Source: Candidatus Omnitrophota bacterium
GTDB lineage: Bacteria; Omnitrophota; Gorgyraeia; Zapsychrales; Fredricksoniimonadaceae
DNA length: 64,000 bases
NCBI GenBank assembly: GCA_015233675.1
Contig: JADFXH010000005.1
Span: forward strand, 16,964-80,963
Reading direction: 5' to 3'
Position 1 is the stretch's first letter, and the number at the start of each line of letters is the position of its first letter. Below the pieces are notes generated by a model. That model did no database searches. It was not told the DNA's origin and saw nothing but the letters and a program-made list of their open reading frames with translations. This document shows positions 2,661 through 62,100 of the stretch, one piece after another. Both the position numbers and the translations under genes were made by a program.

Positions 2661-2786
2661 GTTAATATTTAAGGAAAACCCGTTATGCAAAGGCAATATG
2701 ATGTAAGGAGCAACGAACTCCCCCTGCTTCCTCTTTATAAAAATGAGGGGGTAGGGGGAGTTCATATTTTACAAAAGGACAAATGC

Positions 2787-2975: not shown

Positions 2976-3037
2976 AAGGGCGTTGGCCCGACCTAATCAA
3001 TGGAAAGGCTAGTGGAATTATATGAAAGGATATGGTC

Positions 3038-3454: not shown

Positions 3455-3469
3455 GAAGGAAGAATAAAG

Positions 3470-3829: not shown

Positions 3830-3841
3830 GGGATAAAGTTT

Positions 3842-4159
3842 ATGCAGAATAGAAAAGGACAATCGATTTTAGAATATACGGTGATCCTGATCATTATTTT
3901 AGGCGTTATGATTACTATGAAGGATTATGTCAAACGAGGCATTCAGGGCCGCTGGAAATCAGCGACGGATGATATGGGCGACCAGTATGACCCGCAGAGC
4001 GTTAATTCCAGTATCGTTTATGCGACACAGAGCAATGGGCTATCCATCGTCACGGTCGAAAACGGGAGCTCTGCCAGCGTCTGCGGACAATGGACAAACA
4101 GGGTTGATACATCGAATTCTTTGGAAACGAAAACAGGCTACACACAGATAGGAAGCTGA
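3842..4159 (+). CDS. Flp-like prepilin paralog 8 (105 aa)
   Basis: SD AAGGGA upstream. MQNRKG-QSILEY-TVILIIILGVMITM. The stop TGA overlaps the next ATG (TGATG at 4157-4161), suggesting translational coupling. Confidence 0.8.
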   Translation: MQNRKGQSILEYTVILIIILGVMITMKDYVKRGIQGRWKSATDDMGDQYDPQSVNSSIVYATQSNGLSIVTVENGSSASVCGQWTNRVDTSNSLETKTGYTQIGS

Positions 4160-5928: not shown

Positions 5929-6203
5929 TGAACTTACGTGAAAATATAAAAGCGCAGTCGACGATAGAATTCACTTTCGCGATGATTGTCGTCATGTTTT
6001 TAATCTTCGGACTGGTGATGGTCTTTCGTTGGACAGGCATGGACTTGGCCAGCCGGCGTGTGACACAGGACATTACGTTAACAACGAATCCAGAGCCTAC
6101 AAAAGGGGACCCGTCATCACAACTGAGTACCGGTGACGACGTGATTTTGCCGATTGCCGCGGTTTATCACGGAAGCATTACTAACGGGGACACAGGCCCA
6201 TGA
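5928..6203 (+). CDS. TadE-like minor pilin (91 aa; track ORF 5823..6203 trimmed)
   Basis: ATG 5928 overlaps the upstream stop (TGATG). MNLRENIKA-QSTIEF-TFAMIVVMFLIFGLVMVF matches the TadE-like N-terminal pattern. The ATGA overlap at 6200-6203 couples it to the next gene. Confidence 0.65.
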   Translation: MNLRENIKAQSTIEFTFAMIVVMFLIFGLVMVFRWTGMDLASRRVTQDITLTTNPEPTKGDPSSQLSTGDDVILPIAAVYHGSITNGDTGP

Positions 6204-8506: not shown

Positions 8507-8576
8507 CTGAATGCCTGCTTTTGTTAAGAAGTGGGCACGTGATTGAGGATGCAATAGTATAAACAGGAATTAAAAT

Positions 8577-11213
8577 ATGCGTTATTATGTGTTGATTTTA
8601 TTATTTTTTATATTAATTACGTTATCTGCTAAAGTGCAGGCGTCGGCTTCTGTTACTATACAAACGCTTACTAGCTCAAGCAGTTCAAACAGCTCGACAT
8701 GCTCCCTTCTGAATCCTAACTGTCAGTATCCTCTGCAGTCTACTATTCTTCTTACGGCTACTACTTCAGGGAAAACTCCGTATGTGACTTTTTATTACCA
8801 GCAAGGAGGAAATACGATCATTTTGGGAACAGTTTCTCCCAGCGACAGTACTGGTACCACCTTTATCTATAGCTGGACCCCGCCGCCAGCACTAACGGGA
8901 ACTTTTTCTGTATATGCGGCCGCTTCAAATGGAGTAGCGCTTGGAAGCACTTCTTTGTATGGGCCGATTGACCTTGTGGGAGATACAACCCTTTTCCCAA
9001 ACGCAAATCTTGCTAATAATTCGATTTTTGGAGAGGGAGGCAGCGGTAGCTGGCTGCCGGGTGACAATCAAATGTGTTCAGCCTCCTGGCCGTATAATGG
9101 GGACCTCTCCGCTCCCAACGGCATGTGCGAGTGGACCGGAACTGCGGCGGCAAGCCCTCTTTCTGTAACAGCCAATAGCACCGTCGATAGTCTGGATGAT
9201 GTTATGCATACCTTTTCAGATTTTGTTACTTTTTCTAATAGTATCCTTAATTCTGATGCTGGGACAATAAATACAACTTTTGATAACTGGTATCCCTTTG
9301 CCGCTCAGTGGATTGCTCCTGCATGTACAGGGGCGGATCAATGTAGCACAGATACCTCTGTTTTGGGGGATCCTTTGAGCCTGACGCCTCCTGCGTGTCC
9401 AAATGTCAGCTGTAACCCAGGTGACAATGATGGACGTTTGTTAAGTATTTATGAGCCAGCTGGCTATCCTAATATTAGCGGGTGGGCATACAATAATAAA
9501 AAACCAGCGGTAGATAAACTCAATGACTGGAATAATGCGGTTACAACGTGGCTTAACACAAGCTATACGCCTTCAACCGCGACCAGCTCTACTGCCGTCT
9601 GGTGCGTTCCATTGGAATCGGCGATATCCGGTTCTGCTGAAGACACGTATATTCAACAAAACGCCCCTACTTCCGTCTGGGGAGACCTTCCCCATGTCAT
9701 TGCCTGTTTGAATTATAATGCCGGTCCAACAACGGCGCAGCAGGCGACCAGTAATTATCAAAATTATTTAAGTTGTCTGAACTATTTGCAGAGCGGGGCA
9801 TGCCCTACTGTCATATCAGGGACTCCGTGCGATGCCGGGGTGCTTGGAGCATCTTCTCCTGTTTGGGATTCAAGCGATCCTAATAGGTGCAATGTTTTTT
9901 CAAAAGGAAGTTTCGCGAATGCAGTGAATAATCAAATTAATTTCGGCCCTGTGAACAACTACAAAAACTGCCTGTCTTTGGTGACGAACCAATGTCCTGC
10001 CAGCTTGGCAAACACCGTCTGCGACCCTTCAGTTTTAGGCAGATCACTCACGTCAGGATATACCGGATGCGCCGATGGCAGTTCGTGCAGCGGAGGTAAA
10101 TGCAGCACAAGCGGGGCTAAGTGTGTTGTCGCATATTCAGGAGGGGCAGGATCATCAAGTTGTAATCCTGTCGCTTCCGTTTCAGACCAGTATCCCTACT
10201 CGAAATGGCTGGAGGATAATATAACCTTATTTACTGACGAGACCCCGAAATTTTCTTTGCGTTCGGCATTTTTAACCGATATCTTTACAAGGGCACAAAC
10301 CATGCAAAATATAACTGCCCAGGCGGATATTGCCCTGCATAATTTTTTAAAGCCCTGCGGCTCAGCTGACTGTTCAGACGGCGGCCCGGCGGCCCAGCTG
10401 ATCTACAGGCACACTCAGGTTCAAAATTCTACCACAGCATTACCAAAAGCATTACCAAATGCCGTTGTTTACGGATGGGTAGACAGCACCTTGCCTAATG
10501 GACAGACCTTGCCCGGCAGACCGGCAGGAGCGGGGGGATACGCTCATATTGTTAAAGTTACAGCATTTTCGACAGGACGTAACGGTAAGAATGGCGAAGG
10601 GGGCGTGGCAATACAAAGTCAAATGCCTTGGATTTACACGTGGACATCAGGGACTTTTGGCACGAAGAGAAACTTCGAACTAATGTCCCGCGATGGAGCC
10701 GTGTTCGTCAGTGTCAAGCGCTGGGATGAGGAACATAGCAGTGCGGTTACTTTTCCTAATGGGAATACGTTATGGCAATTTTTGTACCATAATCCTAATG
10801 CTTTAAAAAATATTAACATAGCAACACCATTCAGTCTTTTTGGGGCTGTGGGGGGATGCGCCATAAATTACGGCGCCAGTGGAATTTTTGGATTTGGACT
10901 GATGGCCCAAACAGCGCAAGGTCTGGCGGCCAGTAACATTGTACCTCAAGACAAGACTTCTCTTCAGTATGCTTTTATGTTAAATGATAGTGGGGATGGA
11001 ACAGTTGACACGACCAATGGAGCCTCCTCCTCATCCTGTATACAAGCAGCCGATGCATTGTTGTCCACGGGCACGGAAAGTCATGCTTGCGCGGAGTATA
11101 TAGCCTCCAGCAATGCTTCAAAGAGTTCAGGGACCGGAGATACAGATTATTCTATTAAATTTGTTGATTGCAGCACTCTTTATGGCAGCACATTGCCAGA
11201 TGCGGAACCGTAG
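8577..11213 (+). CDS. Secreted Cys-rich protein of unknown function (878 aa), candidate pilus-associated adhesin
   Basis: Signal-peptide-like N-terminus MRYYVLILLFFILITLSAKVQA-SAS, then an Ig-like N-terminal region (FIYSWTPPPALTGTFSVYAAASNG). Many Cys, Ser, Thr and Asn; no catalytic motif recognised. It is embedded between pilin-like genes. Confidence 0.55.
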   Translation: MRYYVLILLFFILITLSAKVQASASVTIQTLTSSSSSNSSTCSLLNPNCQYPLQSTILLTATTSGKTPYVTFYYQQGGNTIILGTVSPSDSTGTTFIYSWTPPPALTGTFSVYAAASNGVALGSTSLYGPIDLVGDTTLFPNANLANNSIFGEGGSGSWLPGDNQMCSASWPYNGDLSAPNGMCEWTGTAAASPLSVTANSTVDSLDDVMHTFSDFVTFSNSILNSDAGTINTTFDNWYPFAAQWIAPACTGADQCSTDTSVLGDPLSLTPPACPNVSCNPGDNDGRLLSIYEPAGYPNISGWAYNNKKPAVDKLNDWNNAVTTWLNTSYTPSTATSSTAVWCVPLESAISGSAEDTYIQQNAPTSVWGDLPHVIACLNYNAGPTTAQQATSNYQNYLSCLNYLQSGACPTVISGTPCDAGVLGASSPVWDSSDPNRCNVFSKGSFANAVNNQINFGPVNNYKNCLSLVTNQCPASLANTVCDPSVLGRSLTSGYTGCADGSSCSGGKCSTSGAKCVVAYSGGAGSSSCNPVASVSDQYPYSKWLEDNITLFTDETPKFSLRSAFLTDIFTRAQTMQNITAQADIALHNFLKPCGSADCSDGGPAAQLIYRHTQVQNSTTALPKALPNAVVYGWVDSTLPNGQTLPGRPAGAGGYAHIVKVTAFSTGRNGKNGEGGVAIQSQMPWIYTWTSGTFGTKRNFELMSRDGAVFVSVKRWDEEHSSAVTFPNGNTLWQFLYHNPNALKNINIATPFSLFGAVGGCAINYGASGIFGFGLMAQTAQGLAASNIVPQDKTSLQYAFMLNDSGDGTVDTTNGASSSSCIQAADALLSTGTESHACAEYIASSNASKSSGTGDTDYSIKFVDCSTLYGSTLPDAEP

Positions 11214-11627: not shown

Positions 11628-12503
11628 ATGTTATATTTGTATTATATGCTCATCCTTGCCCTATTATTAATATTTCTTTCCGTCTCTCTTTTAGGAGTCA
11701 CCTTGGTGCCGGCGCTGGTGGCCAAGTCCGGCCAGCTAAACAAAAACCGGGCCATGGCCGTCGTCGGGAAGGTTGACCGGTTCCTGAATGAAGAAGAGAT
11801 AAAGAAAATGTACCAGATGACCCTGTTGGGCCCTGTTGCTTTGGGGCTTGCGGGGGTTTTTCTTTTCCCTCAAGGAAAAAATTTAATCGGGCTTATTATC
11901 GGAGTAGTGCTGGGATTTATTCTACCCCGCATGTATATTGGCCGTATCCTCAATGCCCGCAAACAGAAATTTGATGACCAGTTTATTGATGCCCTTATGA
12001 TCATGTCCAGTTCTTTTCGAGGGGGCTTAAGTCTTGTCCAGGCCTTTGAATCCGTGGCAGATGAAATGCCTGAGCCGGTAAAAGGCGAGTTTGGCGTAGT
12101 ATTAGGGGAGAACAAAATGGGGGTTTCTTTGGACGAATCTCTAAATCGTCTTTATAGGCGGATGCCATCCCCTGCCATGCAGCAGATGGTAACTGCTATT
12201 TTGCTGGCTCGTGAAACCGGAGGTAATTTGCCGGTTATTTTTATGCGCATCGTCAGCAGCACCCGTGAACGTAAAAAGATAGAGAAAAACCTGCAAACCC
12301 TGACGGTGCAAGGAAAGATCCAGGCATTCGTTATGACCGGTTTACCGGTATTTTTCTTTTTTACCGTATCGGGCACTAATCCGCATTTTTTTGATGTCAT
12401 GACTCATTCGCCCATGGGGCAGAAGCTGATGATTATATGTATTGTATTGTGGGTACTGGGGGCGCTAAGCATTTGGAAAATATCAACATTTAAGGACATA
12501 TAA
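11628..12503 (+). CDS. tadB: TadB-like pilus platform protein (type II secretion system F domain)
   Basis: 291 aa with an N-terminal TM and a central soluble T2SSF-like segment (FIDALMIMSSSFRGGLSLVQAFESVADEMPEP...GVSLDESLNRL...ILLARETGGNL). C-terminal TM helices are present. It sits immediately before a second T2SSF protein, as in tad loci. Confidence 0.8.
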   Translation: MLYLYYMLILALLLIFLSVSLLGVTLVPALVAKSGQLNKNRAMAVVGKVDRFLNEEEIKKMYQMTLLGPVALGLAGVFLFPQGKNLIGLIIGVVLGFILPRMYIGRILNARKQKFDDQFIDALMIMSSSFRGGLSLVQAFESVADEMPEPVKGEFGVVLGENKMGVSLDESLNRLYRRMPSPAMQQMVTAILLARETGGNLPVIFMRIVSSTRERKKIEKNLQTLTVQGKIQAFVMTGLPVFFFFTVSGTNPHFFDVMTHSPMGQKLMIICIVLWVLGALSIWKISTFKDI

Positions 12504-12507
12504 AGCA

Positions 12508-13419
12508 ATGTTAGTACCGTTATTATTAGCATTTTTTGCCGGATTTTCCCTGGTTTTGGCCTTTTTTCCTGTGGCTCTGGATTATCGCCCCAAATTGAAA
12601 TTGAATATTGATGACCCTTTCGCGGCCATTCAGCAAAAGCCCGCTGAGCGTAAAAGGGGGTTGGGAGCAGATTTGGCGCTTTTTATAAGGAATAAAATAG
12701 CGATTATTAACGCGCCTCTTGCTGTTTCGCCGATCGGAAGGCGTGTCTTTCACGATTTGGGCATGGCAAAATCGAGCCTTAGCGTCGAAGAATTCTTTTT
12801 GATCAAGGAATGTCTGATTGCGGGGAGTCTTTTTTTGGTGATTAAAGGAGGCGCAAATGCCGACTTTTTCATGTTTTTAGTTTTAATGAGTTTAGCTTTA
12901 GGATATATGCTGCCGGAATTCTGGCTGAAGTCCAGAATAAAGAAAGTAAAAGGAGAGATTTTAAGGTATTTACCGGATACCGTTGACCTTTTGGGTCTTT
13001 GCGTTAATGCTGGTTTGGATTTTATATTAGCGCTTAAGTATGTAGTGGAAAAATCAACCCCAACGGTGATTATTGACGAATTAAGGAACATGATGCAGGA
13101 AATCAATGTGGGTAAGCCCAGGCGTGATGCGTTGAGGGACCTTGCCCGCAAGTACGAATTGCCGGATTTGTCCACGTTTTCCAGAACTTTGATTCAAGCA
13201 GACAGAATGGGGACATCTGTTATAGAAGCATTAAACATCCTTTCCGAAGACATGCGCGAGGCCCGCTTCAGGAGAGGGGAAGCTATGGCTTTGAAGGCTC
13301 CTTTAAAGATGCTTGTCCCTCTGTTATTTTTTATATTCCCGGTTGTTGCAATATTAGTTGCCGGCCCAGTCTTCCTAGATTTCATGCAAAACAACCCCAT
13401 AAAAAATCTCGCCCATTAG
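12508..13419 (+). CDS. tadC: TadC-like pilus platform protein (type II secretion system F domain)
   Basis: 303 aa. LPDTVDLLGLCVNAGLDFILALKYVVEK...EINVGKPRRDALRDLARKY...LIQADRMGTSVIEALNILSEDMREARFRRGEAMALKAPLKMLVPLLFFIFP matches the TadC/GspF-type pattern. Confidence 0.8.
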   Translation: MLVPLLLAFFAGFSLVLAFFPVALDYRPKLKLNIDDPFAAIQQKPAERKRGLGADLALFIRNKIAIINAPLAVSPIGRRVFHDLGMAKSSLSVEEFFLIKECLIAGSLFLVIKGGANADFFMFLVLMSLALGYMLPEFWLKSRIKKVKGEILRYLPDTVDLLGLCVNAGLDFILALKYVVEKSTPTVIIDELRNMMQEINVGKPRRDALRDLARKYELPDLSTFSRTLIQADRMGTSVIEALNILSEDMREARFRRGEAMALKAPLKMLVPLLFFIFPVVAILVAGPVFLDFMQNNPIKNLAH

Positions 13420-13454
13420 ACTATAGCCATACAGGTCATTTTTAAGAAGATTAT

Positions 13455-13480
13455 GTCATTCCCGCGAAAGCGGGAATCCA
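13455..13480 (+). repeat. 26-nt palindromic REP-like element, copy 2 (GTCATTCCCGCGAAAGCGGGAATCCA); plausible intrinsic terminator of the tad operon
   Basis: Same element as 1122-1147. It has a 7-bp GC-rich stem and a GAAA loop, is followed by TTTTTATATT, and lies 36 nt after the tadC stop. Confidence 0.65.
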
Positions 13481-13523
13481 TTTTTATATTACGCTTCATT
13501 TCAGCTAAAGCCCAGATCTAGTT

Positions 13524-13656
13524 AATTTCCACTCTAAAACAATGTCCATTCTAATTTGTGTTAAATATAATAAGCAGAAGTATTGTCCATTCTGAAAAAC
13601 AAATAAAAAAATTTCCAATATAATTCAATTTCCACTCAAAAAATGTCCATTCTGAT
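13524..13656 (+). promoter_or_regulatory. Three direct copies of TGTCCATTCT (two within a longer AATTTCCACTC-A4/5-ATGTCCATTCT-[AG]AT unit) in the tadC to giant-gene spacer
   Basis: Core copies lie at 13543-13552, 13584-13593 and 13644-13653. The long units lie at 13524-13555 and 13627-13656. This is a candidate operator array or remnant of a small repeat element; no function is shown. Confidence 0.35.
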
Positions 13657-13689
13657 AAAATTTTATGTAAAATGAGATTTTCTTATTCT

Positions 13690-13757
13690 CCTCACCATTG
13701 ATGGGGGAGGTAAGGTGAGGGGGGGGGAATTCGTAGGGGCCGACCTTGTGTCGGCCC
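13690..13757 (+). repeat. Two adjacent hairpin elements separated by a G9 tract
   Basis: CCTCACC (13690-13696) pairs with GGTGAGG (13714-13720). A G9 run lies at 13719-13727. GGGCCGAC (13737-13744) pairs with GTCGGCCC (13750-13757) with a 5-nt loop. No T-run follows either hairpin. Confidence 0.6.
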
Positions 13758-14087
13758 GATAAAAAACAATCAAAAATTGTCACCCAATATTAAGCTTCAG
13801 GAAATTATAAAACTAAAAGTGGAGTAAAAATCTTATCAAACATCAATTTATTAATAAAAAAAGCGCATACAAATTTATTTATAAAAGATTGTGGAGTAAA
13901 AAATCCAAAAAACGATAATTTAATGATTGAAAAATTCAAAACCCACCTCTAATTAATTTTAATATAGAATATAGTTTATAAAATAGAGAAAATTGCACAT
14001 TTATTTATATTTCTTTATTTTTGTTTTAACACAAACATAACTTTAATATTTATAATATGTTATAAATGTAAAATAATTTCCAAAAAC

Positions 14088-14115
14088 TTGCTAATCGTAA
14101 AATATATGGTATACT
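14088..14115 (+). promoter_or_regulatory. Candidate sigma70-type promoter of the giant gene (TTGCTA, 16-nt spacer, TGg-TATACT extended -10)
   Basis: TTGCTA at 14088-14093; TG at 14107-14108; TATACT at 14110-14115. It lies in a very AT-rich spacer, ~40 nt upstream of ATG 14156. The -10 region is nearly identical to the flp promoter candidate. Confidence 0.4.
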
Positions 14116-14155
14116 CCAATTGTCGACGACAACATGGAACCAGAATACAAAAAAC

Positions 14156-17100
14156 ATGAGCCAAAATTTGGAAAACACAGCTGAATTTCCTGATCAGGAA
14201 CAAAATGTTCCGCAAGCCCAGGACAACGCTGTGAATTCTTTTGTTTCGGCCCCTCAAACTCCCGCATCAGACGCCAACCCCTTTGTAAGCCGTTTCAACC
14301 AGTGGATAAAGATCATCGCCATTATAGTTTTATCCACCTTTATACCGGACCAAATCAGCTGGGCATTTGGCTATAATCCGGCAGTGCTTTACAAAAATTT
14401 ACCGATGTACACCATGCAAAATGCGGACATGCCTTTGCCAAAGCCTGCTATGCAGGTAGCCGGAAGTGTTGAATATTTGCTCAAGCAAATTCAAGACAAG
14501 CCAAAGCTTCGTTTGGAATTAAATTTAGACCAGAGATCTTCTCATTCCCTTGAAATCGACACCAAAACTGTTTTTAATTCAATAAAGATCAAACAAATCA
14601 CACAGTGGCTTAATTCGCCGGATCTTAATGTCCTTAATTGCGGTGTATATGCTTTAAAGAATATTTTAGAATCCCAAGGCATTAAGCGTTCTTTGTCTGA
14701 AATCGCTGTGATGACTTTGTCAGTGGACATCATGGCGGATATCATTAAAATCGGTGAGCCGAAATTAAAAACAACCCTTTTTGCAATTAATAAAACCGCT
14801 AAAGCGCTGGGGTTAGATTATGAAAGCTTAAAGCTTTCTCCTTTAGATACTCTGAATTTAAAAACCCCATTTATCGCGCATTTTAAAAATGAACATTTTG
14901 TCACGGTTCAAAAAGTACTTGGCGGGAAGGTATATTATACCGACCTTGATTATCCCCGCATAGTTGACCAGCAGGATTTCCTGAATAATTCCGACGGCAT
15001 CGTCTTTGCCCAACCCCCTTCTTTATCATCCTCTCAAGCGATACCCGAAGCCCTGCAAGCCTTTGTCTGGGGCGACAAATGGCGCGACAAGAGCAGCTCT
15101 TTGCCCGGGTTTATGACCAGCGCCCAAATTAACTTTCAGATTATCATGGCGATAGTTACAGTTTTTCTGCCGGTCAAGGGCGGTATTGTTCTGGCCGATT
15201 TTAGCTTTCAATTAGGCCAATTCATGGGGTCTCTGGGAAATATTTGTGTATTGGAAAAGAAATGCAGTCAGGACACAGCTTTTATTTTATCTCACGCATT
15301 GACGGCTGCCTTTTCAGCATTTGAGGGAACTTTAAGCAATGGGGGCACTTGGAGCGCCGCATGGTCCTCCTTTGGAGACGGCCTTATCTTTGGTTCCGTT
15401 AATGCCGTTGTGGATTTGGAAATCGCCAAAGTGGTTAATAATGCGTTTTGTCCCGCCAGCGCAAATCCTTGCAGCGATACTAATCAAATTTTGTCCCAAT
15501 TAGTTAGCACGATTGCAGACTCTGTAGCTGATAAAGTTGTCGATCAGGGGGTTGCCAGTGTTTCGGACCAACTTTTTCATACTGATCTAACTGAGTTTTT
15601 AAATGGACCATCGCCGGATGAAGCTAAAAAGATGGTTGAAAAGGATAATCAAGCTGTTAAAGCCGATGAGCAAACCTATCAAGCCGATCAGCCAACAGTT
15701 GATGGTCAGCCGCAAACAGTTGATGAACAGCAGAAAACAGTTGACGCCGAGGAGCAAACAGCGGATGCTTTGCAGAAAACAGTTGATACAGAACAGGCTG
15801 ATTTAACTAAGGATCCGAACAACACCGAACTTCAGAGCAAACTTAAAGTCGCCCAAGACAATCTTAACGCTATTAACCACAAGCTTGATAACGACACAGA
15901 TAAACTCATTTCCGCCACAGACGATCTTAGGCAACTTCAAGCTGACGAGGCAAAACGTAATCTCGACAAGACCTACCTTGATAATCCAAAAAATTTCAAT
16001 GATGCATTGCATAAAATAATGATCAAATCGCTTCCTTTTATTGTTAGCCAGCTAGCAGAGGCGGCGGCGAGGTTCATCGCATATAAGGAGTTCAATGTCA
16101 AAGCCACGGACGGCCTTTCCAATGCTATCGGTCTCGGGGCCAGCATGATCGCTAACACCGCTTTTTCTGACTCAAAGTTCTATACAAAAGAGTTTAAGGA
16201 TACTTTTCCTAATACTCCTAATCAAGCACAAGACATGACGGATTCTTTTAGGCGTGCGATCATCGCTTTTGGGTTGGGGATGCTGTCAAATAGCGCGATC
16301 GGAAAATACGACGAAACTAAAGCCAAAGATGATCCGTCTTACGCTCATGAGTATAGTTATGACCAGGCTGAATTTCAGACTCTGGTCTTGTTGGGTTCCA
16401 GTCTTTTGTCTGATATGATATTAGTGAGTTTGCCTCCAAGTGGAGAAAGTACACAAACAAGCAGGGTAGGATTCTGGCCCGCGTTTCAGTCAATATGGAA
16501 TGGGGAGGCCAGTTCTTCCTCAGGGGAATACCAAAGAGATGGCAAAATACCGGTGCAGGAAATTCCAGCAGGAAGTTCCCCATTTGTGATTCCGGATTTT
16601 GCCGAAAGTTTAGGAGGCAAGCCCCTTTTAGCTGCTTATTTTAGAAATGGATCATGGGGAGGGGCTGAGAATTTTATAGATTGGTCAAATACCCAATCTG
16701 AAATGATTGGTTTTACTGCCGATAGCGCCGCTTCTGCGGATACGATGTGGACGCAGATGAAGAAGAACAATAAGACGAACAATAAGACGAACATTGGTCC
16801 TGCCCAACGCACTATCGGCGGTCTGATCACCTTCGGAATAGTCACCCCTGCGGTTTCCAACAGCACATTGCAGGACCAGTTCCTTCTTTCCATGCTTCAA
16901 TCGCATATGATAGGGAATATCGGTATCGATCCCGGCTATATTGCCAGCCAGGCGCAAGAGGCCAATATCACAAGTATTAGTAATTTAGGATATATTACGG
17001 AGTATGCATATGCAAAATTGTTTAATACCAAAATTAATACCGCCGCGCTTAATGCTGTGAAGAAGATAACGGGAACCTTTCAAGTTCAAGCTGCTAAGGC

Positions 17101-50100: not shown

Positions 50101-53100
50101 AGCCTACTCAGAAATTAGCCTGCTTGCCCGGAACTTTGCGAGAAATGGGAGGACTTTGACCCAAGAGGGGGCGGAGATTGCTATTTGTACAGTTGAGCCG
50201 TATAAAAGAGGCAACCCGTCAAGGAAAGAAATTAGAAGCGTAATGAATTATTTTAAATCTCTGGAAGGCAAGAGTGCTTCAGAGGAGGAAAATGTCGTTG
50301 CTTACCGCGGTCAATTGACAGACGAAGAGCAGTCTAAGTTGAAGGAAGTCCTGGAATCGTCTCAAAAGGCTGTAAAATTTGCCCCCACAAAGGTCCAACA
50401 GGCCATTGAAATCATTGGTGACAGGGTTGTGTATGTTCAAAATGTCGGCAAATTCAGGGTCAGTCAACTTATGGTGGGCAAAGAAGTAATCTATATTCAG
50501 ACCTACAACCATTCACCGCCTAACGCGACTATTATAGGCAATAACATTTATATATTTGCCGCGGATGAAAACATAATAAGTCCGCAATTATTAGCCAGAA
50601 TGTTCATCCACGAAGTGGTAGAAGTTGAACTATATTATCTAAGATTAGGGATCCCCGCAGAATTTATCCACCAATTAGCTCAAAAAGCCCAAGAGGTTAT
50701 TAAATACGGCTTTGTTCAACAGATCATTGAGAGATACCATAACTTTATAACTTGGTTCACTGCGAATAAACAGCCAGCTATTGTTCCTGAAGGGGCACAA
50801 GTGCCGTCTAAGAAGAACGGTCCGCCATGGAGTCCGGGTCAGGGCCGTCAGCCTGTTACTGTGCCGCCGGCACCATTTATGCCAACCGCGCCAAATGGGG
50901 AGCCTGATAAGACCCCGCCTCCTGGCGGCGGCTCAACCGGCAAGACAGCTCCATCGGCATACGTTTCACCGGCTCCTTCTCCGGATACTTTTGCATTTGA
51001 ACAGACATTTTCAGGTAATGAAGGTTTAGGTAAAGATGGTTCTAATTTTGAAAGAGGAAGACAAACCGGACCGCCGATTGAAGAACTTCAAGCGAGTCGC
51101 GGTGACGGCGGCCGTACTTTCTCTGTACTCGCTTTCCTCAAGCGAGCATACAGAGGAAATGAAGGAAGAGAGGAAAATAGTAAAACTGTTGGTAATAAAG
51201 AAGTTGTAGCAAATAGTACCGTTTTTGTTGGAATGCAGGAAGGTGGCTTAGCGCGAGCTCTGTCCGCCGAAGAAGTAGGTAGTGTTGAAGTCATCAGTTC
51301 AATAGTAAGAAATAAAGGTAGTAGAAGCACAGTAGAAGACAGCAATGCAGTAGACAGTAAGGTAGTAGGTAGTAATACAGTAAGCGGTAATGTAATAGTA
51401 GCAAGCAACACTGAAGTTGGTAGTAATGCAGTTGGTAGTTCAAGTAATGGTATTACCACCTTCGTGGTGAACGCGGGTGCTATAAGCGAAGCAGTAAGAA
51501 GCATAGTTGGAAGAAGTGCAGAAGAAAGCAATACCCGTTCTCGTACCGAAGCTGGTACGGATGAAGTTAGAAGTACAGTTGTTGAAGTTAGCGAATCTAG
51601 CTGGAATGGCGAAGCTGTAAGAGGTGTGAGAAGTGCGTCCACTAATACAGCAGAAACCATAGAAAGTGTAAGCGCCAAAGGTGTGCGAGGTTCAGGAAGT
51701 GTGAGAACTCAGCACAGAAATACCCGTTCTCGTACCGTAACAATAGGTACGCATAAAGATAGTACAGTTGTGGCTGGATCCACGAGAACATTCGGGAATG
51801 GCCGCAATAGCATTGAATATAGCGAATCTAGCCGAATTGGTTCAGTTGCAGAAGGAACCATAGAAGGCATAAGCGCCCAAGGTGTGCGAGGTTCAGGAAG
51901 TGTGAGAACCCGGCACAATGATGTTGTAAAGGGTGGCGACGTAACCGCTCAAATATATAGCAATAAGGATAGATTTACCAAGGTTTCAGGATTGCGTCTG
52001 CAGATAATCGCAGCGATTCGGAAGGTTCTCGGAGTCCGAAAAGCAAGTGATAACTCGAAGGCGCAAGAAGTGTTTGTCCAAACAAGCACTGCCGAAGCCG
52101 CAGTTGTTCCGCTCGCCCGAAGCGAGGCAGGAAATAACGGTGTAAATCGTGTTGCCTCCTTCTCAAGAATGACAAAGAGGATCCTTACATTTACCGCTAT
52201 ATTTGTTATCATGGCGGTTAGCATCATACCTTTAGTTGCCGCACCTGCCCAAGCGCAAATGACGCCGGCCCCTGTCATGATTTCAGCAACAATGGCAGTA
52301 CCGGCTAATCAGACTGTTGCGCCACAAGCAACTGTACCGGCAGTCACAACAACAAACGTTACTCAGCCTACCACTGATAAACAGGTGGCAACTGCTTCAA
52401 CAACACCTGCCCCTGCAGTGACCAAGGTCGCAAATCTCGTCAAAGCCTTCACAGCAACAGAAGGGCAAACAACTGCGATATTCGGCAAGACCGAAGACGG
52501 CAAATATTTCAAGGCAACGCTCCAGAATTGGAGTCCTGTAGTTGCGGAGGATGTTCCTGCGGACGTTAAACAGGCTATTGACATCGCAACAGCCCAGCAT
52601 CCGCTGGTATTGTGGGTCAACAGCAAAGACGTCACAAGTCCTGATTATCAAGCGAATTATCAGACCATTTTGAACAATGTCCGCCAGGCTTTAGGGAACA
52701 CTAATATTGTTACCCTGTGTGATACAGCCAAGCCGGAAAACACGATTCAATCGACAAGCCCGCTTACCTTCAGCCCGGTGACAGTCAGTGACAGGCACAT
52801 TTTACGTGAAGGCAAACCATACATTATCCATGGCATTACTCTATCAACCGCACATACCGGAGAAGGCCGCCGGGATGTCCGCTATACGCTTGATTACATC
52901 GGAGGGGAAAACACCTTACGTCAGATGAAGGAGATGGGAGTTAACAGTATCCGCATGTATTATCCTCCGAGCAAAGATCTTCTTGATGCTTTAAGCCGCA
53001 ATGGCATGACCGTGACAGTGGGAATCCCGAATTTTGATGACCGCAATGTTCCGGCTGATGAAAAGATCGATATCAGCAGCGGCAGTTATAAACAGTACAT

Positions 53101-56100
53101 TGATCAAAACAAGAACAATCCCGCGATTCTAATGTGGGAAATTGGTAACGAATATAACTATCATCCTGAATGGTTCAAGGATAGCGGTAAGAGCTGGAAG
53201 GAGATTCTAAAAGACACAGTACATGAAGTGCGGGCAATTGATATGAATCATCCGATAACGACAGCCGAGGGAGTAGAACAGGGCGGCTTAAAGGCGATTG
53301 CGGGCAAAGACGGGGATGGGATTAGCGCGGCAGGGTTTAACGTATATAGGGGAGAAGGGCTTGGTAATTTGAGTCAAGAGTGGCAGAAAGCTTCTGTCAA
53401 GCCGGTGTATTTATCTGAATTTGGGGTCAATTACAGCGCAGATGCCGATGTACAGGCAAGGGGCATCAAGATGCTCTGGCAGGATATCCAAAAGGGCATT
53501 GATGAAGGGGTTCTTTCCGGCGGATATGCGATGACATGGAAGAGTGAAGACTGGAAAGACGGCGCGGCAGAAAAGAACCTTGGAGTTATTGATGCCAATG
53601 GAGCACCGAAACAAGCCTATTATGTACTTCAGCAGCTCTGGAACCCGTCGAAAGTTCCAGCTCCGGCCACAAACATCGTACCTGCCAAGGCTGATCCTAA
53701 AGCAGAACCTAAGACAGGTCTTCCTTCAGTGCCGAAAACGACTCCGACATTGGTACCGGCGAATCACAGCTCTGGTAACGATCCATTGAAGGAGCAGCTT
53801 AATAAAATGAACAACAGCCTGCAGGCGGCTAAGGAAGGCATAGATAGCGCGAATAAGAGCCTTAAGGAAATCAACATCCAAATAGCGGATCATTCTAACG
53901 ACTGGCAAATCAGAGATCAAAACAATGATGTACGTTACGGTCTGGCCCTGATGGGGATCAATCTCCAGCAATCAATTGGTCAGGCGTATGCAGACAATCT
54001 TAATTCATCCAACATGAGTGATGAGGACAAATCCGGAGTATTCGCAGGACTTAGCGTCGGGTCAGTTCCTGACAACGGGTTAAGCGTTAAGCTTTGGGGA
54101 CCATTGTCTGTTAATGCAACAGTTCAAAACTCGCAGGCAGGCCCGCTTAACATGGCACAAACGCTGCTTAATACAAAAGAGGTATTTAAAGCGCAGGGAG
54201 TCAATGCAGTGATGGGTGGGATCAATTATGTCAAGACGATCACTGATATAAACAATATTTTTGTAACCCAGCATGTACGCATGAGTGAAGCAGGGGCGTT
54301 TGTAATAAAGAATGGTAAGCAGACAGTAATAGCGTTGGATGCAATTAAGGGCAATCCGATAGCAGTGGACGATCATGGCAAGGCTGTATTTAAGGCAGGG
54401 CGAGACGGCAAATTAGTACATGTTCCTGTGATAGAAAAACTATATAGCGGCATTGAGGCAATTACAGGGAAGATATTTGGTAACCATAGCAAGCAAGTAC
54501 CGTACAGCAAGCAGAAGTCGGGGTATATTCCTGGCAGGGTTGAAAGCGCCTTTGTAATGCAGGGCAGCAACAACACAAATCCATATATTAAGTATACGAT
54601 CGAACGTGGAGAACAAGGTTATTTTGTCAATGATCAAGGCTCATATGTGCAGAAAGGAACAACGGGCGCGATTGCGGCAGAGCAATTTGTGTTTGGCTAC
54701 AAATATGATATGACGAAGCTGATGGCGAGCAACGGGAAAGACGGGAAAACCGCCATATTTATGAGCCATCGATTTGCCAATACAGAAGAAGAGGAAGTGA
54801 TCAAGAACAACCAAAAGGATCTGTGGCTTGAGCCGGGGGCTATTTATTCGATACCCTCCAAGTATGATTTGAAGATGGCGGCGAAGAACTGGCCTGATTT
54901 GACAGGGAAGGACAACAATGCGTTGCTTATTCATCCGATTACGAAGGAAGTGCTGAAGGTTTATGCCGGTGACAAACTGCCGAATACTGCATACAGGAAT
55001 CAGCCGGTAGTAGTCAATGGAGCGATGAATCCTGAAAGTCTGATGGGAGTGCCTGTAGACAGCAGTTACGGGCCGGTAAAAGATGCTCAGGGCAAGCCGA
55101 TGGTCTGGGGCGGCACCTTTGCGAGATCAGTAATTGCGCAAGTGGGGGCCAATGGAGAAGTGATTGCGGCGGGGTTGATTAAGTCTGAGGTAGTTAAGAG
55201 CAGTTCAGATATGCTAACAATTCCTACTTTAGACCAAAAAGAAAGCATCGTGCGAAAGGTAGTTGCTGATGCCGGCGGAGACGAGCTAGAAGCGAATAAG
55301 GTATGGAATATTTTGCAAGAGAACCAGGAGCAGCCGGTATTCCCGCAGGTGATTTATACGCCGAGCGGCATCAACCGTTATTCATGGTCTATCTTACCTT
55401 TATCTAATAATGAAACCAATGATACCGGCACGGTGATGGTTTTTAAGAAAAACGGCAATGCGTATGAATTTTCCAAATTTAGCAGCAACTTTACGGTTAA
55501 GCCGGAGTCCAAGCCATTAACGTCAAGTGTAGTTTTGAGTATGCCGGTCAGCGATGGTATAGCGGCGGTAAAGACGGTATGTGGGCACAATTTTAATACC
55601 ATCACACTTCCTGCCAAATTCCCGGTGGTCCAAAATCCCGATAAGGATAGTACAGATAATATCGGTATATTTATACCGAAGCCGGATAAAGTCATGTATG
55701 CCTTTATCACGTTTAAGGATTATACACAGGCTATATATAGTGAAGCGCAAGCTCTTAAATTGCATATTTATGATTTACCGGATAAGGGAGAGGTAAAATC
55801 TTCAGTTGCGTACAAATCAGCTGATTATAGCTGGAGCCACACTAATGAGCCGGCCCATAATGTAGAAGGTCAGATGCCGGTACAGCTGGGTATTTATGAG
55901 GATCATACACCGGCGATAGTGGTATATACGCCGCGCATTACCAATCTCCAGAAGTATATGCAGGAGCATCAGAAGAGCGCAGTTGCAATCACGCCTGAGG
56001 GGGCAACTAAATATTTTGATAATGCGCCTTTGACGCATATGGACAAGGTAGAGCCGATGGCCTCGCCGGTATTTGGCAAAGCCGCAAGCGATCTGGCGTC

Positions 56101-59100
56101 TGGCAGATCACTGGATGATTTAAAAGCTGCTATTAACTCAAAGGCATTTGAAGCGATCAAAGATGCGGACAAACAGGCCATTAATAATCGTATTGATAAT
56201 ATCGTGAATCTGGATCAAACAAATAGCGAGGCTCTTAAGGTTTATCAAGGCTCATTAATTCAAGGGAAATTAGACAATGCGTATCAGCTGCTTTTGAATG
56301 CGCAGAAGATGAAAGGGCAGAAAGGTCTTCAGTCTGCGGCAGAAGCGATTTATGGGATATTAGGACAGGTTGAAGAAGAGACAGCGAAAGTAGACAGCGA
56401 TATGTCGATCGGCAAGATGATCGTGCAGATCTCCGGCGCGTTGCAGACGGTGAGCAGTGATCAATTTGATTCCAAGGGGCTTAAATCAAGTATTCTTATC
56501 CCTGCCTTAGCGCAAGACGGGGACATCTCGGAGGGTCGCGTGACTTTAGGATTTAACGGATTTAGCGCCGCCTTCAATACACATTTGACCAAAGATTTGG
56601 GGTATACGCAGGAGCAAGCAGCTCAGATCGCGGCTATATTAAAACAGGATCTGATAAGCGAGACACCGGATGGTTATTTGAAACAGCTGCAGTCATTAGG
56701 TGACAACAAGGCCATGCATGAGAAATTGAGCAACGATATTAAGGGTTACTACAATACCCCGATTGCCAGCAGCTTTGATTTAACTTCTTTAGGGATCGCA
56801 ATTGGCCAAGACACAACGAGTATTCAGACTTACAAGAATTATGATCTAATGTCCCACGAATGGCCGCTTTTGACGCCATCTGTTATTAAAGCCGCTGGGG
56901 CCTATTGGGCAAGTCTTGACAAGCAGATAGCGGCGATTGATAAGGATGTAGCCGCAGGAACGTTAAGTCCGGCGGCAATCGTCGAGTACACGAAAGTCCG
57001 CAACAGCCTCTCGACAATAGAGAGCGTCTCCAAGACAGAGGTTGATCTTGACAGTCAACTATATAACCACACTAGTCAGGAAAACGGATTGCTTAAGGTG
57101 ATCAATCGCAAAATAGCAGACACCCAACAAGATGAAGACGCAAAGACAGCCGAGCTTAACGCATTAACAGCGATGAACAATCTTCAAGATCAGCATTTAT
57201 TATATACGCCAAAGGTTCAAGTCTCGGTGAAGCAGGCAATTGACTTAAATTTGAATAACGCCAATTTTGATATTAACACCTTCTTTAGTCGAACAGGGTT
57301 TGGCCTTGATCCGTTACGCAGCATGCTTGACGAGACGAAGAATTTAATGGCCGCCAACCGCAGCAAGCAAAACGATGCGGACACGCTAAAAGGACTTCGA
57401 AAGGTTTATGAGCAGGAGCAAAGGGAATTTACGAATAATATGACGGCGCTGAATACGAAGTTCGCTGATGCCCAGAAAGAAAGAGCTATTTTAAAGGGCG
57501 AATTGACAACCGCGATTGTTAAATCAACGATGGATGACAAATCAAAGCATGATGGTATCCAGGCGCTTGAAGAGTTTTTTGCCGCTAACCGCGGACCAAG
57601 CGCGGGGCTACTGGTTGCGGGCAACAGCGTTTACACGGCGCAAGGCCGTGTAGAGCTTGTGGCTCCATATGCGGGCAAGATTACGGGGAGCAAGTTAGAA
57701 TCTGATGGTAATCAGTATTACTTTACGACAGATGAAGGTCGCAAAGTGACGTATATTGCCGGGACGTATACTGTTAATGCGCCGGGCGCATTCCAGAACA
57801 GTTTTGGTCTTGTCAGTATTGATGAACAGTTAGCTAAAAATTTAATGAGCAACACTAATATAGGGTATGTAGCCGGCGACAAATTTGAGAAACGGCCGGA
57901 CGGCACCTTCAATGATCTCAAGCAAAAGTATTATTTGGTAGTGGAGTCAGTTGGATATAGTACGGACCATGCGTATTTTGGAGTAGTGGGCCTGATTAAG
58001 GCCAATATGCAAGACAAGGACAATACGGTCAAGGCATTAAGCGGAGTGGTTGATTTGGATTTAACGGCGGACCACAAGAACAAGCTTATTATGGAAGCGG
58101 GCATAGCCAATGCCAATGCCTCAAAGAACAGTCCGTATACCATTTATGACATGTTAACCAACCAAGCGATATTCACACAGAGCGTAGCGTTATCTGCCGA
58201 TGATATGAACAGTTATCAGAAGGTAGAGATTCTGCATAACATCAATAAGAACTGGATGATGTATGTGGCGGGCAATCATGAAGAAGGCAAGAACAATATA
58301 ACAGGCAAATACAATGAGTCCTTCCTGTCGGCAGGGGTTGGTGCTGATTACGGGAAGGTCAAGTTTAATTTTGAAGCAGCGCCGGGCGCAAAACGCTATG
58401 GCAGCAAGATGACTTTTGGGCGTCTTTATTTATCTGCAGATGATATCCATAATACGACAGTCTTAAGCGGAAGCTATGATCTGGTCAAAGATAACGGTCA
58501 GGTAATTGAAGTGGGGGCCAAACGTGATGCCCAGCAAAACATCATCGGGTTTATCGGCTGGCGCAAAGAATACAAAGGGATGGACATCAGTGGCGGTGTT
58601 ACGAGCAAGGGCGCGCCGGAGCTTAGTGTCTCTAAACAAATCGCGGGCAGTAACGCTAAGGCTAAGGTCAAGGGGCTGGTAGAAGTGCCTGTTAATATGG
58701 GGCCAGAAGACAGATGGATGATTCCGGGCTTTGAGGATCTATCCAAAGAGCCGGGCCGGATGACCGAGAGCATGGAAGTTAATGGGGTCAGCGGTGAGCC
58801 GATAAAAGGCCTATTTGACCAGCAGGGCAATATAGTGATTCTTTCGAATGCATTGATCCAAAAGGATCTGGACATTCAGGCCAACGATTTTGTGAAATTA
58901 ATTTATCTCGATGGCAAAGGATTTACCGGTGCTGACAAGAACGCATTTGCAAATGCGGTTACACCGCGCGCCGTGACTGTCGGCAATGAGACCAGAACAA
59001 GATCAGCCATAACCCCGATCAAATGGATTACGGCACAAGACCTCGAGGCGGCGCATATTCAAAAAGATAATAACGGCCTGTATTGGTTCACTCTGGATGA

Positions 59101-62100
59101 CGGCCAAAAGGTATCTTTAGGCAGCGGCGAAACAATGATTATATTGCCGGGAGATACAGACAAAATAGGTCTTGGCCACAGCAGCTATCCTGTGGTCGTG
59201 GAGTTGACATATAAGGGGTTTTCAGAACAGATACCGGAACTTACACAATATATAAACGGAGTAAATGATGGCTTGTATGTTGCCAGGATCATGACTCCTG
59301 ACATGAAAAAGGGCACATTGGCGACTGCCGTGGCTCCCAAGGAGCTAGAAGAGTACCTGGCCCATAGCGAAGAAGATCTTGGTAAGATATCGCATTTTGA
59401 GCAAATAATAGTGCCAGTAGAAAAGTCAACAATTGCAGGTCTCGATTTAATGAACGTCAAGGGATCAGTTTTAAATCCTGATAATCCAAAGGGCATTTGG
59501 CAGGCAGTGGGGGGATCAACAACAAAAGTGCAGTTAAAACTGAACACCGACTTAGAGGGAATTCTCGCAAAGTACTCACAAGCAGATGCTCATAAAATCA
59601 TGTCTATGGTGCAGCAGTCCTATGGTTATGTGGCAGTTTATCCTGACGGACGACACGTTTCCGTTGAGTTTGCCGGAAAAGCCGGATTTGATGCATTAGG
59701 TTCTGCAATAAATGGTAATTGGTCCACAGTACCGATGAAGAATGGGACGGTATATGCCACGGAAGAAGAATTGATGAAGCTTTACAATGAAGGCAAGATA
59801 AAGTCTGTTGATGAAAAAGGCAATGGAAAATGGAAACTGATGACTGATCAGGGGGCGGTAGGGATATCGAAGGAGTTAATTAAAGAAGGGAAAGATTTTA
59901 AAGCAGGGACAGTTAAAAACGGATTTTACTTTAGGATCCTCAAACCCGGCCTTACAAGGGGCAAGTTAAACACCTATGTGAATGTTAATGGCTTAAGCCG
60001 GTATATGGCACGTAATCCCGCAGGGCTTAAAGGCGCGCATCTGGAGCAGTATACAGTGAAGCTAAATGGCAAAGCAATACCTGACGGCAAGGGCGGGTTC
60101 CAGCAAGCCTATCATATCGTCGGTATTTCTGAAAAGCCGGTGGCGGTGGAATTTGCCGGGCCAAAGGGTAAAGTTGGGTATGATGCGTTATGGGATATAA
60201 CCAAAGATTTATTTACTGTGAAGACAAGCGAAGGGACGATTTATATAAGCGCAAAAGAAATTGTCAACGGTCTTCATAACGGGACGTATAAATTTGCTCC
60301 TGTCAAAGGCAAGAAAGAACTGGTCTTAGAGACAAGGGATGGGATCAAAGTAGGCTGGCCCAGCAAGAAGAACGGGGATTCTAATTATCAGTATGTTTTG
60401 AGAACTGCCAACAACACTCCTATTAACACATTGTTTAGCATTCCTAACAAATTAGGCGGTGTGGATTTCATCACTGAGAAACAAGTTATCAATGGTATTG
60501 AGCATAATTTATTCTGGTTCGGAGAGAAGAATGCGCAGGGTAAACGTCCGTTGATGACGAAGGTAGTGATTAATGGGAAGACCAGGGAAATAAAAGTTGG
60601 CTGGCCGGCGGCAGGGGCTAATTTCTCGAGGGCCGGACGTGCGCAGTTGTCAGCATTCCTTAATAGTCATGTCATGTATGTTGCCGAGAATGGGCAGGCT
60701 AGGAGCAGGTTTATGACTCTCGCGGGGATAGCAAAGGATACAACGCATTGGGGAACGATACGCCACAATTTGGCAACACTGTTTAGCATGGATGTGAATG
60801 GTAAAACAGTGGCCTGGTATGGGATGAGCGAGGTCCCCGGAGTTTTCGAAAAAACAGAAAACGTAACAAATGTTAAGAGCAACACATTCATTTTGGATAT
60901 GCGCAACGGTCATGTTATTAAGACCCCGTCAAGCACATCCGTGAAGTCAGATTTATACTTTGTAAATAAGAAATTGATGGCGTATACGATCCGTGTGAAC
61001 AACCTGTTGAATGGGCAAGAATGGCAGGAGCGCCGTGTGATTGTTCCTCATGTTGGGGAACGCGTAAAGATCAAGATCGCCGATGGCCTTAAGACTATGT
61101 ATGAGTACGACGGATTCGGCCCGCTCGTTCCAACGCAGGTCACGACAACGTTAAATAACGACAATAACCCTGAGAAGATTTCGATATCAAATACCACTGC
61201 CGTGACATTGTTAGGCGTGCCGAATGACAAGCTGGCGGCAGTCAATAAATTTATCGAACAACTGAATAATTCGAAGAATATAAGCGTTGAGTCTGCGGCC
61301 AAGATGCTGGAGAAAGATCTAAAGGCTGTTAAGGGCAGTGATATGACGGGCACGTCGATGGCTCATGGCAGCGATTTTGATTTTAAGGCATACGCTAACA
61401 AGGTTCAAGGGCAGATTCAAGCCAAGTTCGGTCCGGACAATAGCAAGAAGGCCGAGGGCATCATCAATATCGTTCTGGGCAGGGTCTATAGCATGGCGCA
61501 GGATGTGAGGATCACGACAGATAATACTAATTATAAGACAGGGGTCAAGTGGAGCGAGACCAGGAATCTTCAGGGCCGGATATTAACAGCGCAATCCAGC
61601 GAGGGCGAGGTAACGGTTAATAATTATGAAGGGGTGATTGGCAAGGTATTGAACTTGGCGACATCTTCTGAAACCAAAGCTAACGGCAAATTGATTGACG
61701 AAAGTCATCTTGTTAGAGCTGACGGCACGCCCATCTCGAGCATTAATGATATCAATCTTCAGCGATCAGGCAATATATTTGGTTCGGACGGCAGCATTCG
61801 CTATCAGGGGATTAAACATTATTACGATGACAGTGACCTTCGTGTAAATTATCAAGGGGTTCAAAGCGGTGTAGGCCATGTAAAAGTTGCGCAGACAGGG
61901 CATACAGAGAATGGGAAGTTTGTAGCTACGCATAAAGTATACAGCTTCTATGATATGAGCAATCTTGGAATATACAATCTGGCCGAGTGGACAGTTTCAA
62001 CGACAATTATTAACGGGCGCGAAACCATCGACTCATATTCTAACGAAACCACCATAAAGAATGGCGGCATCTCAATAGGGACTAAACAAGGCATTGCTGA

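Follow-up and report, generated by a model that had tools for sequence, protein, structure and literature searches.

An internal signal-peptide-like helix and a GH158/GH2-like glycosidase domain within a giant open reading frame of Omnitrophota

Background

Giant membrane proteins of the 'Archaeovorin' type have been described in the Omnitrophota (West-Roberts et al. 2023, bioRxiv 10.1101/2023.11.21.568195; 2026 preprint 10.64898/2026.06.07.730766), and it is with these that we compare here a signal-peptide-like segment, followed by a glycosidase domain, that lies far inside a giant open reading frame (ORF) of a Candidatus Omnitrophota bacterium (GenBank assembly GCA_015233675.1). The DNA analyzed, called the window below, is a stretch of 64,000 nucleotides of contig JADFXH010000005.1 (positions 16,964 to 80,963, forward strand), numbered from its first letter. 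In the passages of the two preprints on which we draw, the published genes are very long ORFs that encode a C39 domain at the N-terminus, numerous transmembrane (TM) helices and glycosyl hydrolase domains, and have secretion loci next to them, and their products are thought to mediate prey attachment and digestion of the prey envelope. Their authors, in the same passages, call the cleavage points unknown and TM predictions unreliable, and the 2026 preprint describes the insertion mechanism as unvalidated at such protein length. That survey applied DeepTMHMM to 916 long proteins and, in four split proteins of at least 100 thousand amino acids, suppressed signal-peptide calls on the later chunks as chunking artefacts.

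The present locus is a further example of these published giant membrane proteins, not a new kind of system. It resembles the Archaeovorin type, as portrayed in those passages, in its ORF of several tens of kilobases, an N-terminal C39 domain beside a hydrophobic segment, several TM segments, a glycoside hydrolase (GH) domain and homologue-free stretches, and also in an adjacent locus resembling type II secretion systems (T2SS) or Tad systems, with pilins carrying class III signals. What it adds is a well-defined candidate boundary for export or processing, and a clade of glycosidases found repeatedly in giant ORFs. A first-pass annotation, made from the sequence alone, had noticed the segment and proposed for it a relic of gene fusion, an internal translation start or a TM pass placing the glycosidase outside the cell. 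Our analysis leads us to regard the segment, with a probability of roughly two in three, as part of one unbroken giant chain, in which it serves as an internal start-transfer (signal-anchor-like) helix.

Results

A signal-like helix inside a continuous frame

The features on which the argument turns are as follows.

14156 to 64000, plus strand: giant ORF of at least 16,615 codons, its 3' end beyond the window; resembles published Omnitrophota giant membrane proteins.
50798 to 52168, plus strand: spacer of 457 amino acids (aa), of low complexity and rich in S, G, V, A, T and R, recognized by composition and abutting the signal-like helix.
52169 to 52255, plus strand: signal-peptide-like segment, made of MTKR, ILTFTAIFVIMAVSIIPLVAA and PAQA, with the site A-Q-A/Q; proposed internal start-transfer (in-to-out) helix.
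52256 to 52423, plus strand: linker of 56 aa rich in T, A, P, V and Q (T 25%, A 20%, P 14%, V 14%); predicted local distance difference test score (pLDDT) below 35.
52424 to 52750, plus strand: conserved domain of about 110 aa (DGKYFKAT...HPLVLWVN...YQTILNNVRQAL), without a Pfam family.
52766 to 53650, plus strand: clan GH-A (beta/alpha)8 glycosidase domain, GH158/GH2-like, predicted from Pfam, a PDB profile, AlphaFold2 and Foldseek.
53147 to 53152, plus strand: N327-E328 in WEIGNE, with the predicted acid/base Glu; invariant in an alignment of 40 sequences.
53417 to 53419, plus strand: E417 in YLSEFG, predicted nucleophile Glu; invariant in the same alignment.
63272 to 63328, plus strand: next strong TM segment, aa 16,373-16,391, with an out-to-in charge bias (Kyte-Doolittle 2.54; K/R 2 before, 4 after).
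63425 to 63535, plus strand: further TM segments, aa 16,424-16,460 (Kyte-Doolittle 2.05 and 2.45).

The giant frame is free of stop codons from 14072 to 64000, and its earliest plausible start is the ATG at 14156. Between 49500 and 52600 it contains no stop, against 98 and 63 in the other two plus-strand frames; the ORF is therefore continuous across the junction at 52169, and no other reading would allow a gene upstream to end before that point. For the same reason, a frameshifted alternative reading upstream of the junction was ruled out. The Met at 52169 is codon 12,672 (12,671 in-frame codons precede it), which leaves 3,944 codons to the end of the window. The signal-like sequence, its A-Q-A site and its in-frame ATG stand as first reported, about 12,670 codons into the ORF.

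Read from this Met, the peptide is MTKRILTFTAIFVIMAVSIIPLVAAPAQA, followed by QMTPAP. It has the complete tripartite layout of Sec-type signals: a basic n-region, an h-region, a Pro at -4 and small residues at -3 and -1. Its best 19-residue Kyte-Doolittle score, 2.63, is the maximum among all 16,615 residues of the ORF, and its uncharged hydrophobic run is 21 residues long (I5-A25; h-region 16-21). Four K/R residues are found in the 15 positions before the helix and none in the 15 after it. The helix is isolated, being preceded by about 7,400 TM-free residues. Unlike a Sec signal peptide cut by signal peptidase I, it does not stand at the N-terminus of the protein, and the features of its potential start site differ from those of the ordinary starts in the window. 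An exhaustive HMMER search with aa 1-200 counted from Met 52169 (1.84 billion representatives) returned no relatives of the signal or of the linker. A standalone gene beginning at the equivalent of this Met, which the first-pass annotation had suggested looking for, was not found among the homologues. With a crude pattern, 20 signal-like elements were counted in 79,090 aa of giant ORFs read forward, and 18 in the same sequences reversed.

The spacer ahead of the helix has an unusual composition: GC content is 0.54-0.56 at second and 0.30-0.35 at third codon positions, as compared with 0.38 and 0.42 for the whole ORF, while first-position GC is at the level of coding DNA and the frame is open throughout. 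It contains imperfect direct repeats of about 200 nucleotides (nt), for example 51648-51716 and 51849-51917, which are 88% identical at a spacing of 201 nt. We read the spacer as disordered. An antisense ORF at 51088-51678 was rejected as a gene, being an L/T/P/S-rich, low-complexity mirror of the spacer.

Two domains with secreted relatives follow the helix

The Thr/Pro-rich linker is present where the first-pass annotation placed it, but it does not lead directly into the barrel, from which it is separated by the small domain of about 110 aa. Exhaustive HMMER searching gave 12 cluster representatives for this domain (E 3e-9 to 6e-4), all aligned to query aa 69-194 and sharing the pattern DGxYFKAT...HPLVW...Y..LLNN.R.AL. 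Several of these homologues open with ordinary signal peptides, such as MKKTPLIALTLAAIQFSAYAQ, and the partners of the domain in the 12 representatives are ankyrin-, HEAT- or TPR-like repeats. Pfam has no match to it, either in the window segment or in the homologue P0145.

The domain that follows (residues numbered from Met 52169) matches Pfam PF02836, Glyco_hydro_2_C, above the gathering cut-off (E 1.3e-6, 28.2 bits versus 21), and it has 167 homologues at E of 1e-3 or less, the best at 4e-114. Across 40 aligned homologues, N327, E328, E417, R262, H361, Y393 and W462 are invariant. AlphaFold2 predicts alternating strands and helices over aa 200-494, mostly with pLDDT above 85 (residues 1-98 are below 50), and the catalytic residues sit at the ends of the predicted strands 320-325 and 413-419. 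In Foldseek comparisons with the PDB, GH158 and GH2 barrels come on top, with E of about 1e-15. The predicted barrel fold and the invariant N327, E328 and E417 together indicate that the domain is a clan GH-A barrel with intact catalytic residues. The clan assignment made at first reading is thus borne out, with an above-threshold family match and conserved Glu residues. The motif WEIGNE lies at 53135-53152 as given; LSEFG is also present, though its span is 53411-53425, three nucleotides longer than reported. After aa 494 comes a Pro/Lys-rich linker, and then a coiled-coil-like stretch.

Placing the domain in a family is more delicate. GH158 endo-beta-1,3-glucanases (BuGH158, PDB 6pal; GH158(Pro), 9oro/9p26) share with it the clan GH-A barrel and the NE acid/base motif (Foldseek E 1.6e-15), and GH158 is the best sequence match in the PDB (4.9e-10 in a single-sequence search, 1.6e-16 in a profile search), in a partial alignment (query 42-198) at about 20% identity that reaches only the first half of the barrel. 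In GH158 enzymes, a C-terminal Ig-like domain comes after the barrel. In the window, the barrel is instead followed by the Pro/Lys-rich linker and the coiled-coil-like stretch, and there is no Pfam or PDB match downstream. With an alignment that is only partial, and with no domain behind the barrel, membership of GH158 is not demonstrable. Many GH2 barrels (PF02836; beta-glucuronidases, beta-galactosidases) also match in structure, with Foldseek E of 1e-12 to 1e-15 and again an identity of about 20%; the window domain, however, has neither the sugar-binding nor the Ig-like domain that canonical GH2 enzymes carry N-terminally, and is for this reason not counted among them. No match to Glyco_hydro_2_N or Glyco_hydro_2 was found before the barrel, where the unrelated domain of about 110 aa stands instead, and the NCBIfam equivalog models for GH2 fall far under their cut-off (48 bits versus 900). 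The nearest simple counterparts are standalone secreted or lipoprotein 'GH2 TIM barrel domain-containing' proteins of about 338 aa, mostly from Bacteroidota, which are 30-40% identical over the entire barrel and share the invariant motifs WE[ILF]GNEYNYHPEWF and YLSE. They differ from the window domain in being single-domain enzymes, with a signal peptide or lipobox directly before the barrel, and in forming a clade separate from the copies in giant ORFs.

The glycosidase clade recurs in giant ORFs

Twelve loci (L003-L007, L009, L030, L035, L083, L103, L114 and L144) carry a member of the GH clade within an ORF that is open across the full 5-21 kb fetched, and three of these loci are labelled Candidatus Omnitrophota. 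In a further one, L154, the domain lies in a closed ORF of 2,510 aa. The best GH match in GTDB genomes and JGI metagenomes is 37-38% identical to the window domain. A neighbour-joining tree separates the embedded copies, together with those of the window, L001 and L002, from the standalone enzymes of about 340 aa, mostly of Bacteroidota, with a bootstrap of 99/100. As the embedded copies form a clade of their own, the window glycosidase does not descend from a recently captured enzyme of the Bacteroidota type, and the domain appears, on this phylogeny, to be a long-standing resident of giant ORFs.

Helices resembling that of the window precede the barrel in some of these copies. In L083, the final in-to-out helix ahead of the GH domain has the sequence KVNLKK, AVIVTSVLVALGIGSG, AYA/QG, and ends 164 residues ahead of the barrel (171 in the window); in L144 the element is RRSLAFRK, ILVTFATIVTLLGQIM, PACA/LG. 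A basic flank and a helix before the GH domain are also seen in L004, L154 and the second copy of L001, and in a weaker, Tat-like (twin-arginine-like) form in L030. Within its giant ORF, L004 has a compact unit consisting of a TM segment, 31 aa, the GH domain, 47 aa and a second TM segment. One relative, P0002, is a true standalone gene of 609 aa, with a stop five codons before its Met, whose place within the embedded clade is moderately supported (65/100). It encodes one or more N-terminal signals, a domain of about 150 aa, a Q/P/T linker, the GH domain, a C-terminal TM segment and a tail.

Twin-arginine-like motifs were seen before the GH domain at two places: SRRRMIRKIALWSSLAAVGSAAGWL in L030 (nt about 860-930, aa 287-310), inside an uninterrupted ORF of a metagenome-assembled genome (MAG) of Omnitrophota, and SRRAFLGTAAKASGFVVALLALPWNLLA at aa 49-78 of P0002. 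Inside an ORF, a Tat-like signal would be odd; it may have been left over from a gene that was once separate.

The closest GH copies, 56-69% identical to that of the window, are two in tandem with a TM hairpin between them, on L001 (ENA ERZ25039529 contig_5029). GC content on this contig is 0.70 up to about 8.6 kb, where a resistance-nodulation-division (RND) pump is broken off mid-domain, then 0.42-0.48, then about 0.6. The contig being chimeric and frameshifted, with the pump truncated in this way, L001/P0001 (GH domain 59% identical) was rejected as evidence of context, whether as a standalone gene or as an orthologue.

Downstream of the barrel, aa 13,226-16,090 of the giant ORF (nt about 53,830-62,425) are weakly similar to L007, L009 and L035 (24-28% identity, E 1e-11 to 2e-19). 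In L035, the blocks that match this region lie upstream of the GH domain, and such reordering between giant ORFs suggests module shuffling. The 1,200 aa after the GH domain (53660-57259) have no homologue among 5.8 billion proteins.

The rest of the giant ORF and its neighbourhood

The N-terminal part of the ORF and the locus upstream of it contain the following.

14312 to 14368, plus strand: first hydrophobic segment, aa 53-71, before the C39 domain (Kyte-Doolittle 1.71; K/R 2 before, 1 after).
14636 to 14989, plus strand: peptidase C39-like domain, aa 161-278 (Pfam PF03412, E 8.2e-8, 32.6 bits versus a cut-off of 22), with Cys162 in an NCG motif.
15140 to 15196, plus strand: second hydrophobic segment, aa 329-347 (Kyte-Doolittle 2.30).
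11628 to 13419, plus strand: two genes with T2SSF domains (TadB/TadC-like), immediately ahead of the giant ORF (Pfam PF00482, E 3e-17 and 5e-17).
1390 to 2975, plus strand: small genes, including Flp-type pilins with class III signal peptides (PF04021, 26.1 and 24.2 bits versus a cut-off of 23.7; weak Flp_Fap matches).

The first 700 aa of the giant protein share 54-69% identity with partial C39 proteins from Candidatus Omnitrophica/Omnitrophota MAGs, which places the sequence in this phylum. Hydrophobic segments number six strong and four weak over the whole ORF. More than 15,000 residues, outside the C39 and GH domains, have no Pfam match; self-comparison by blastp gave no internal repeats or module duplication, and no orthologous giant protein alignable across the junction was found. 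Cys is scarce, with 13 of 16,615 residues (0.08%), one of them at the NCG motif (aa 162) of the C39 domain. In the three large neighbouring ORFs (4159-11213), Cys makes up 2.4-5.7% of the residues; the one at 6200-8506 has 44 in 768 aa.

Class III signal or Flp signatures were detected on the small ORFs 1390-1545, 1572-1760 and 2685-2975. The Flp/Tad-pilus-like locus (1390-4159 and 11628-13419) also holds several small plus-strand ORFs without matches. Next to the pilus and giant-gene locus, an ORF of 331 aa at 16-1011 has a sub-threshold similarity to HTH_32 (homeodomain-like, transposase-type; 21.4 bits versus a cut-off of 33.7), and possibly belongs to a mobile element. Neither the Rfam nor the tRNA scan of the entire window gave a match.

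Discussion

A probable internal start-transfer helix

Among the three explanations offered at first reading, the TM pass that places the glycosidase outside is the best supported. The helix at 52169 and that at aa 16,373 have opposite charge biases, and both domains between them have secreted relatives; this argues that residues from about 12,700 to 16,372 lie outside the cytoplasmic membrane. The following course of events would account for the arrangement. About 12,300 residues ahead of the helix would remain cytoplasmic. On leaving the ribosome, the basic stretch SRMTKR and the hydrophobic helix would engage the Sec translocon, with the N-terminal side in and the C-terminal side out, and the next 3,670 residues or so would be threaded outside, until the helix at aa 16,373 returned the chain inward. 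The exported segment would then comprise the T/P-rich linker, the small conserved domain, the GH158/GH2-like glycosidase, predicted to be active, and unannotated sequence. The enzyme would act outside the cytoplasmic membrane, plausibly on a glycan of the envelope of a prey or host, in line with what has been proposed in the literature on such giants.

Several observations weigh against this reading. Topology was deduced from Kyte-Doolittle hydropathy and the positive-inside rule. Weak hydrophobic segments are present at aa 742, 5034, 5152 and 5240, and because of them the side on which the upstream region lies is uncertain; the parity holds only if all or none of the four are real. No domain of known compartment marks either flank, the 4,014 aa upstream and 3,207 aa downstream (7,221 residues) being without sequence match in Pfam or the PDB. 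Nor is the helix a constant companion of the barrel: no strong hydrophobic segment occurs within 120 aa before it in seven embedded copies (L003, L005, L006, L083, L103, L114 and L144), the nearest in L003 being 270 residues away, in a TM cluster; four of these loci (L005, L006, L103 and L114) have no strong TM segment upstream in the DNA fetched, and L009, L030 and L035 have weak hydrophobic elements only. The helix is thus not an obligatory part of the module. Moreover, since signal-like patterns are not enriched over the reversed sequences, the AXA site may be due to chance. Finally, no clean orthologue of the junction was found, the closest GH copy being that on the chimeric, frameshifted contig.

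Possible cleavage, internal initiation or artefact

The presence of an A-Q-A/Q site raises the question of whether the chain is also cut there. Giant Omnitrophota ORFs would in that case encode polyproteins, cleaved by type I signal peptidase at internal signals (here at 52253-52258; in L083, at AYA/Q). Once translocation had started, the enzyme would cut between nt 52255 and 52256, giving a cytoplasmic N-terminal piece of about 12,700 aa and an exported piece of at least 3,915 aa that starts with QMTPAP, is anchored C-terminally and contains the glycosidase. Processing of an internal signal-like sequence is known from the Bradyrhizobium FbcH cytochrome b/c1 precursor and, by host signal peptidase, from viral polyproteins. 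The full tripartite layout speaks for such a cut, as do the AYA/Q and ACA/L endings of the elements in L083 and L144, and proteolytic processing is suggested in the passages of the giant-gene preprint that call the cleavage points unknown. However, an uncharged run of 21 residues is longer than one expects in a signal that is cut and is characteristic of signal anchors, the length of the h-region being what separates the two in the parts we cite of a study of the endoplasmic reticulum system (PMC2120157). Furthermore, an AXA site is missing from the nearest relatives in which a helix precedes the GH domain (the second copy of L001, L004 and L154), and the lack of enrichment of AXA-type patterns over reversed sequence counts against a cut here as well. 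We therefore consider cleavage at 52255/52256 unlikely, and its extension to giant Omnitrophota ORFs at large doubtful. If it did occur, internal cutting by signal peptidase would supply the cleavage points that the giant-gene literature calls missing, and the site would be the first defined processing site in such a protein.

Two other explanations were considered. The ATG at 52169 stands exactly at the start of the n-region, and at an N-terminus the segment would pass for an ordinary signal peptide; this ATG might be a second initiation site, possibly served by an internal promoter, from which a separate protein of 3,944 aa or more would be made, beginning with a Sec signal. The first-pass annotation had seen no Shine-Dalgarno (SD) sequence upstream of it, and there is none, but other genes of the window are also without a strong SD, so that its absence is not decisive. 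The RNA around the codon tells against initiation: from -30 to +30 it folds with -12.3 kcal/mol, where internal ATGs average -10.5 and six ordinary starts of the window range from -1.7 to -6.7, and the upstream fraction of A is 0.15, compared with 0.25-0.6 at these six starts, without an SD-like core. Promoter-like and terminator-like matches are at the level of shuffled sequence, the sole promoter-like match on the plus strand lying downstream of the ATG; composition does not break at the junction, and the upstream frame has been kept open over 38 kb. Internal initiation, as the first-pass annotation had it, is very unlikely in view of these data. The alternative is that an indel, a base error or a misjoin has falsely fused an upstream gene of about 12.6 thousand aa to a gene for a secreted protein with its start at 52169. 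The 457 aa that precede the junction are indeed odd in composition and repetitive, the kind of place where assemblies err, and a shift to either of the other frames in the last 170 nt or so would meet a stop at 52135 or 52143. Long homopolymers, on the other hand, are absent near the junction, an uninterrupted frame of about 50 kb argues for accurate sequence, and members of the GH clade lie within unbroken ORFs in no fewer than 12 independent assemblies. An error that removed a gene boundary exactly at the junction is improbable a priori, and we tend to dismiss this explanation.

Origin of the module

The helix may plausibly have come from a gene for a secreted glycosidase that was fused into the ORF. 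A unit made of an export signal, an accessory domain, a linker and the GH domain, with or without a TM segment, exists both as a free gene and within giant ORFs, which supports a fusion origin. The relic proposed by the first-pass annotation is therefore plausible as to its source, given the standalone P0002 and the TM-GH-TM unit of L004, but the 99/100 clade excludes a recent capture. From its relatives, the module looks like a once-independent, membrane-anchored secreted glycosidase that joined giant ORFs long ago. A recurrent clade, with a standalone signal-GH-anchor gene nested in it, suggests a plausible route by which giant ORFs might gain extracytoplasmic modules, namely fusion with retention of the export signal. 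For experiments, the locus provides a testable boundary, where an isolated signal-like helix is followed by two domains with secreted relatives, and a compact glycosidase, its catalytic residues predicted to be intact, that is suited to expression and assay.

Comparison with known systems

Besides the likenesses given at the outset, the locus departs from the Archaeovorin type in some respects. SecA_DEAD, HEAT, glycosyltransferase (GT) and NUDIX domains, and also methyltransferase domains, were not detected by Pfam in the 16.6 thousand aa encoded within the window, where the ORF is incomplete. In the portions of the preprints cited, the SecA domains of published giants follow the C-terminal TM segments, a place that would here fall beyond the end of the window. 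A GH158/GH2-like clade specific to giant ORFs is not described in the passages of these preprints located by term searching, and neither is a lone signal-peptide-like helix after some 7,400 TM-free residues. The element itself resembles the internal signal sequences and signal anchors of polytopic membrane proteins and polyproteins, in which a basic flank and a helix start translocation, with an optional AXA site. It differs from these known internal signals in scale: it is located 12,671 residues into the chain, and about 3,670 residues would be exported behind it.

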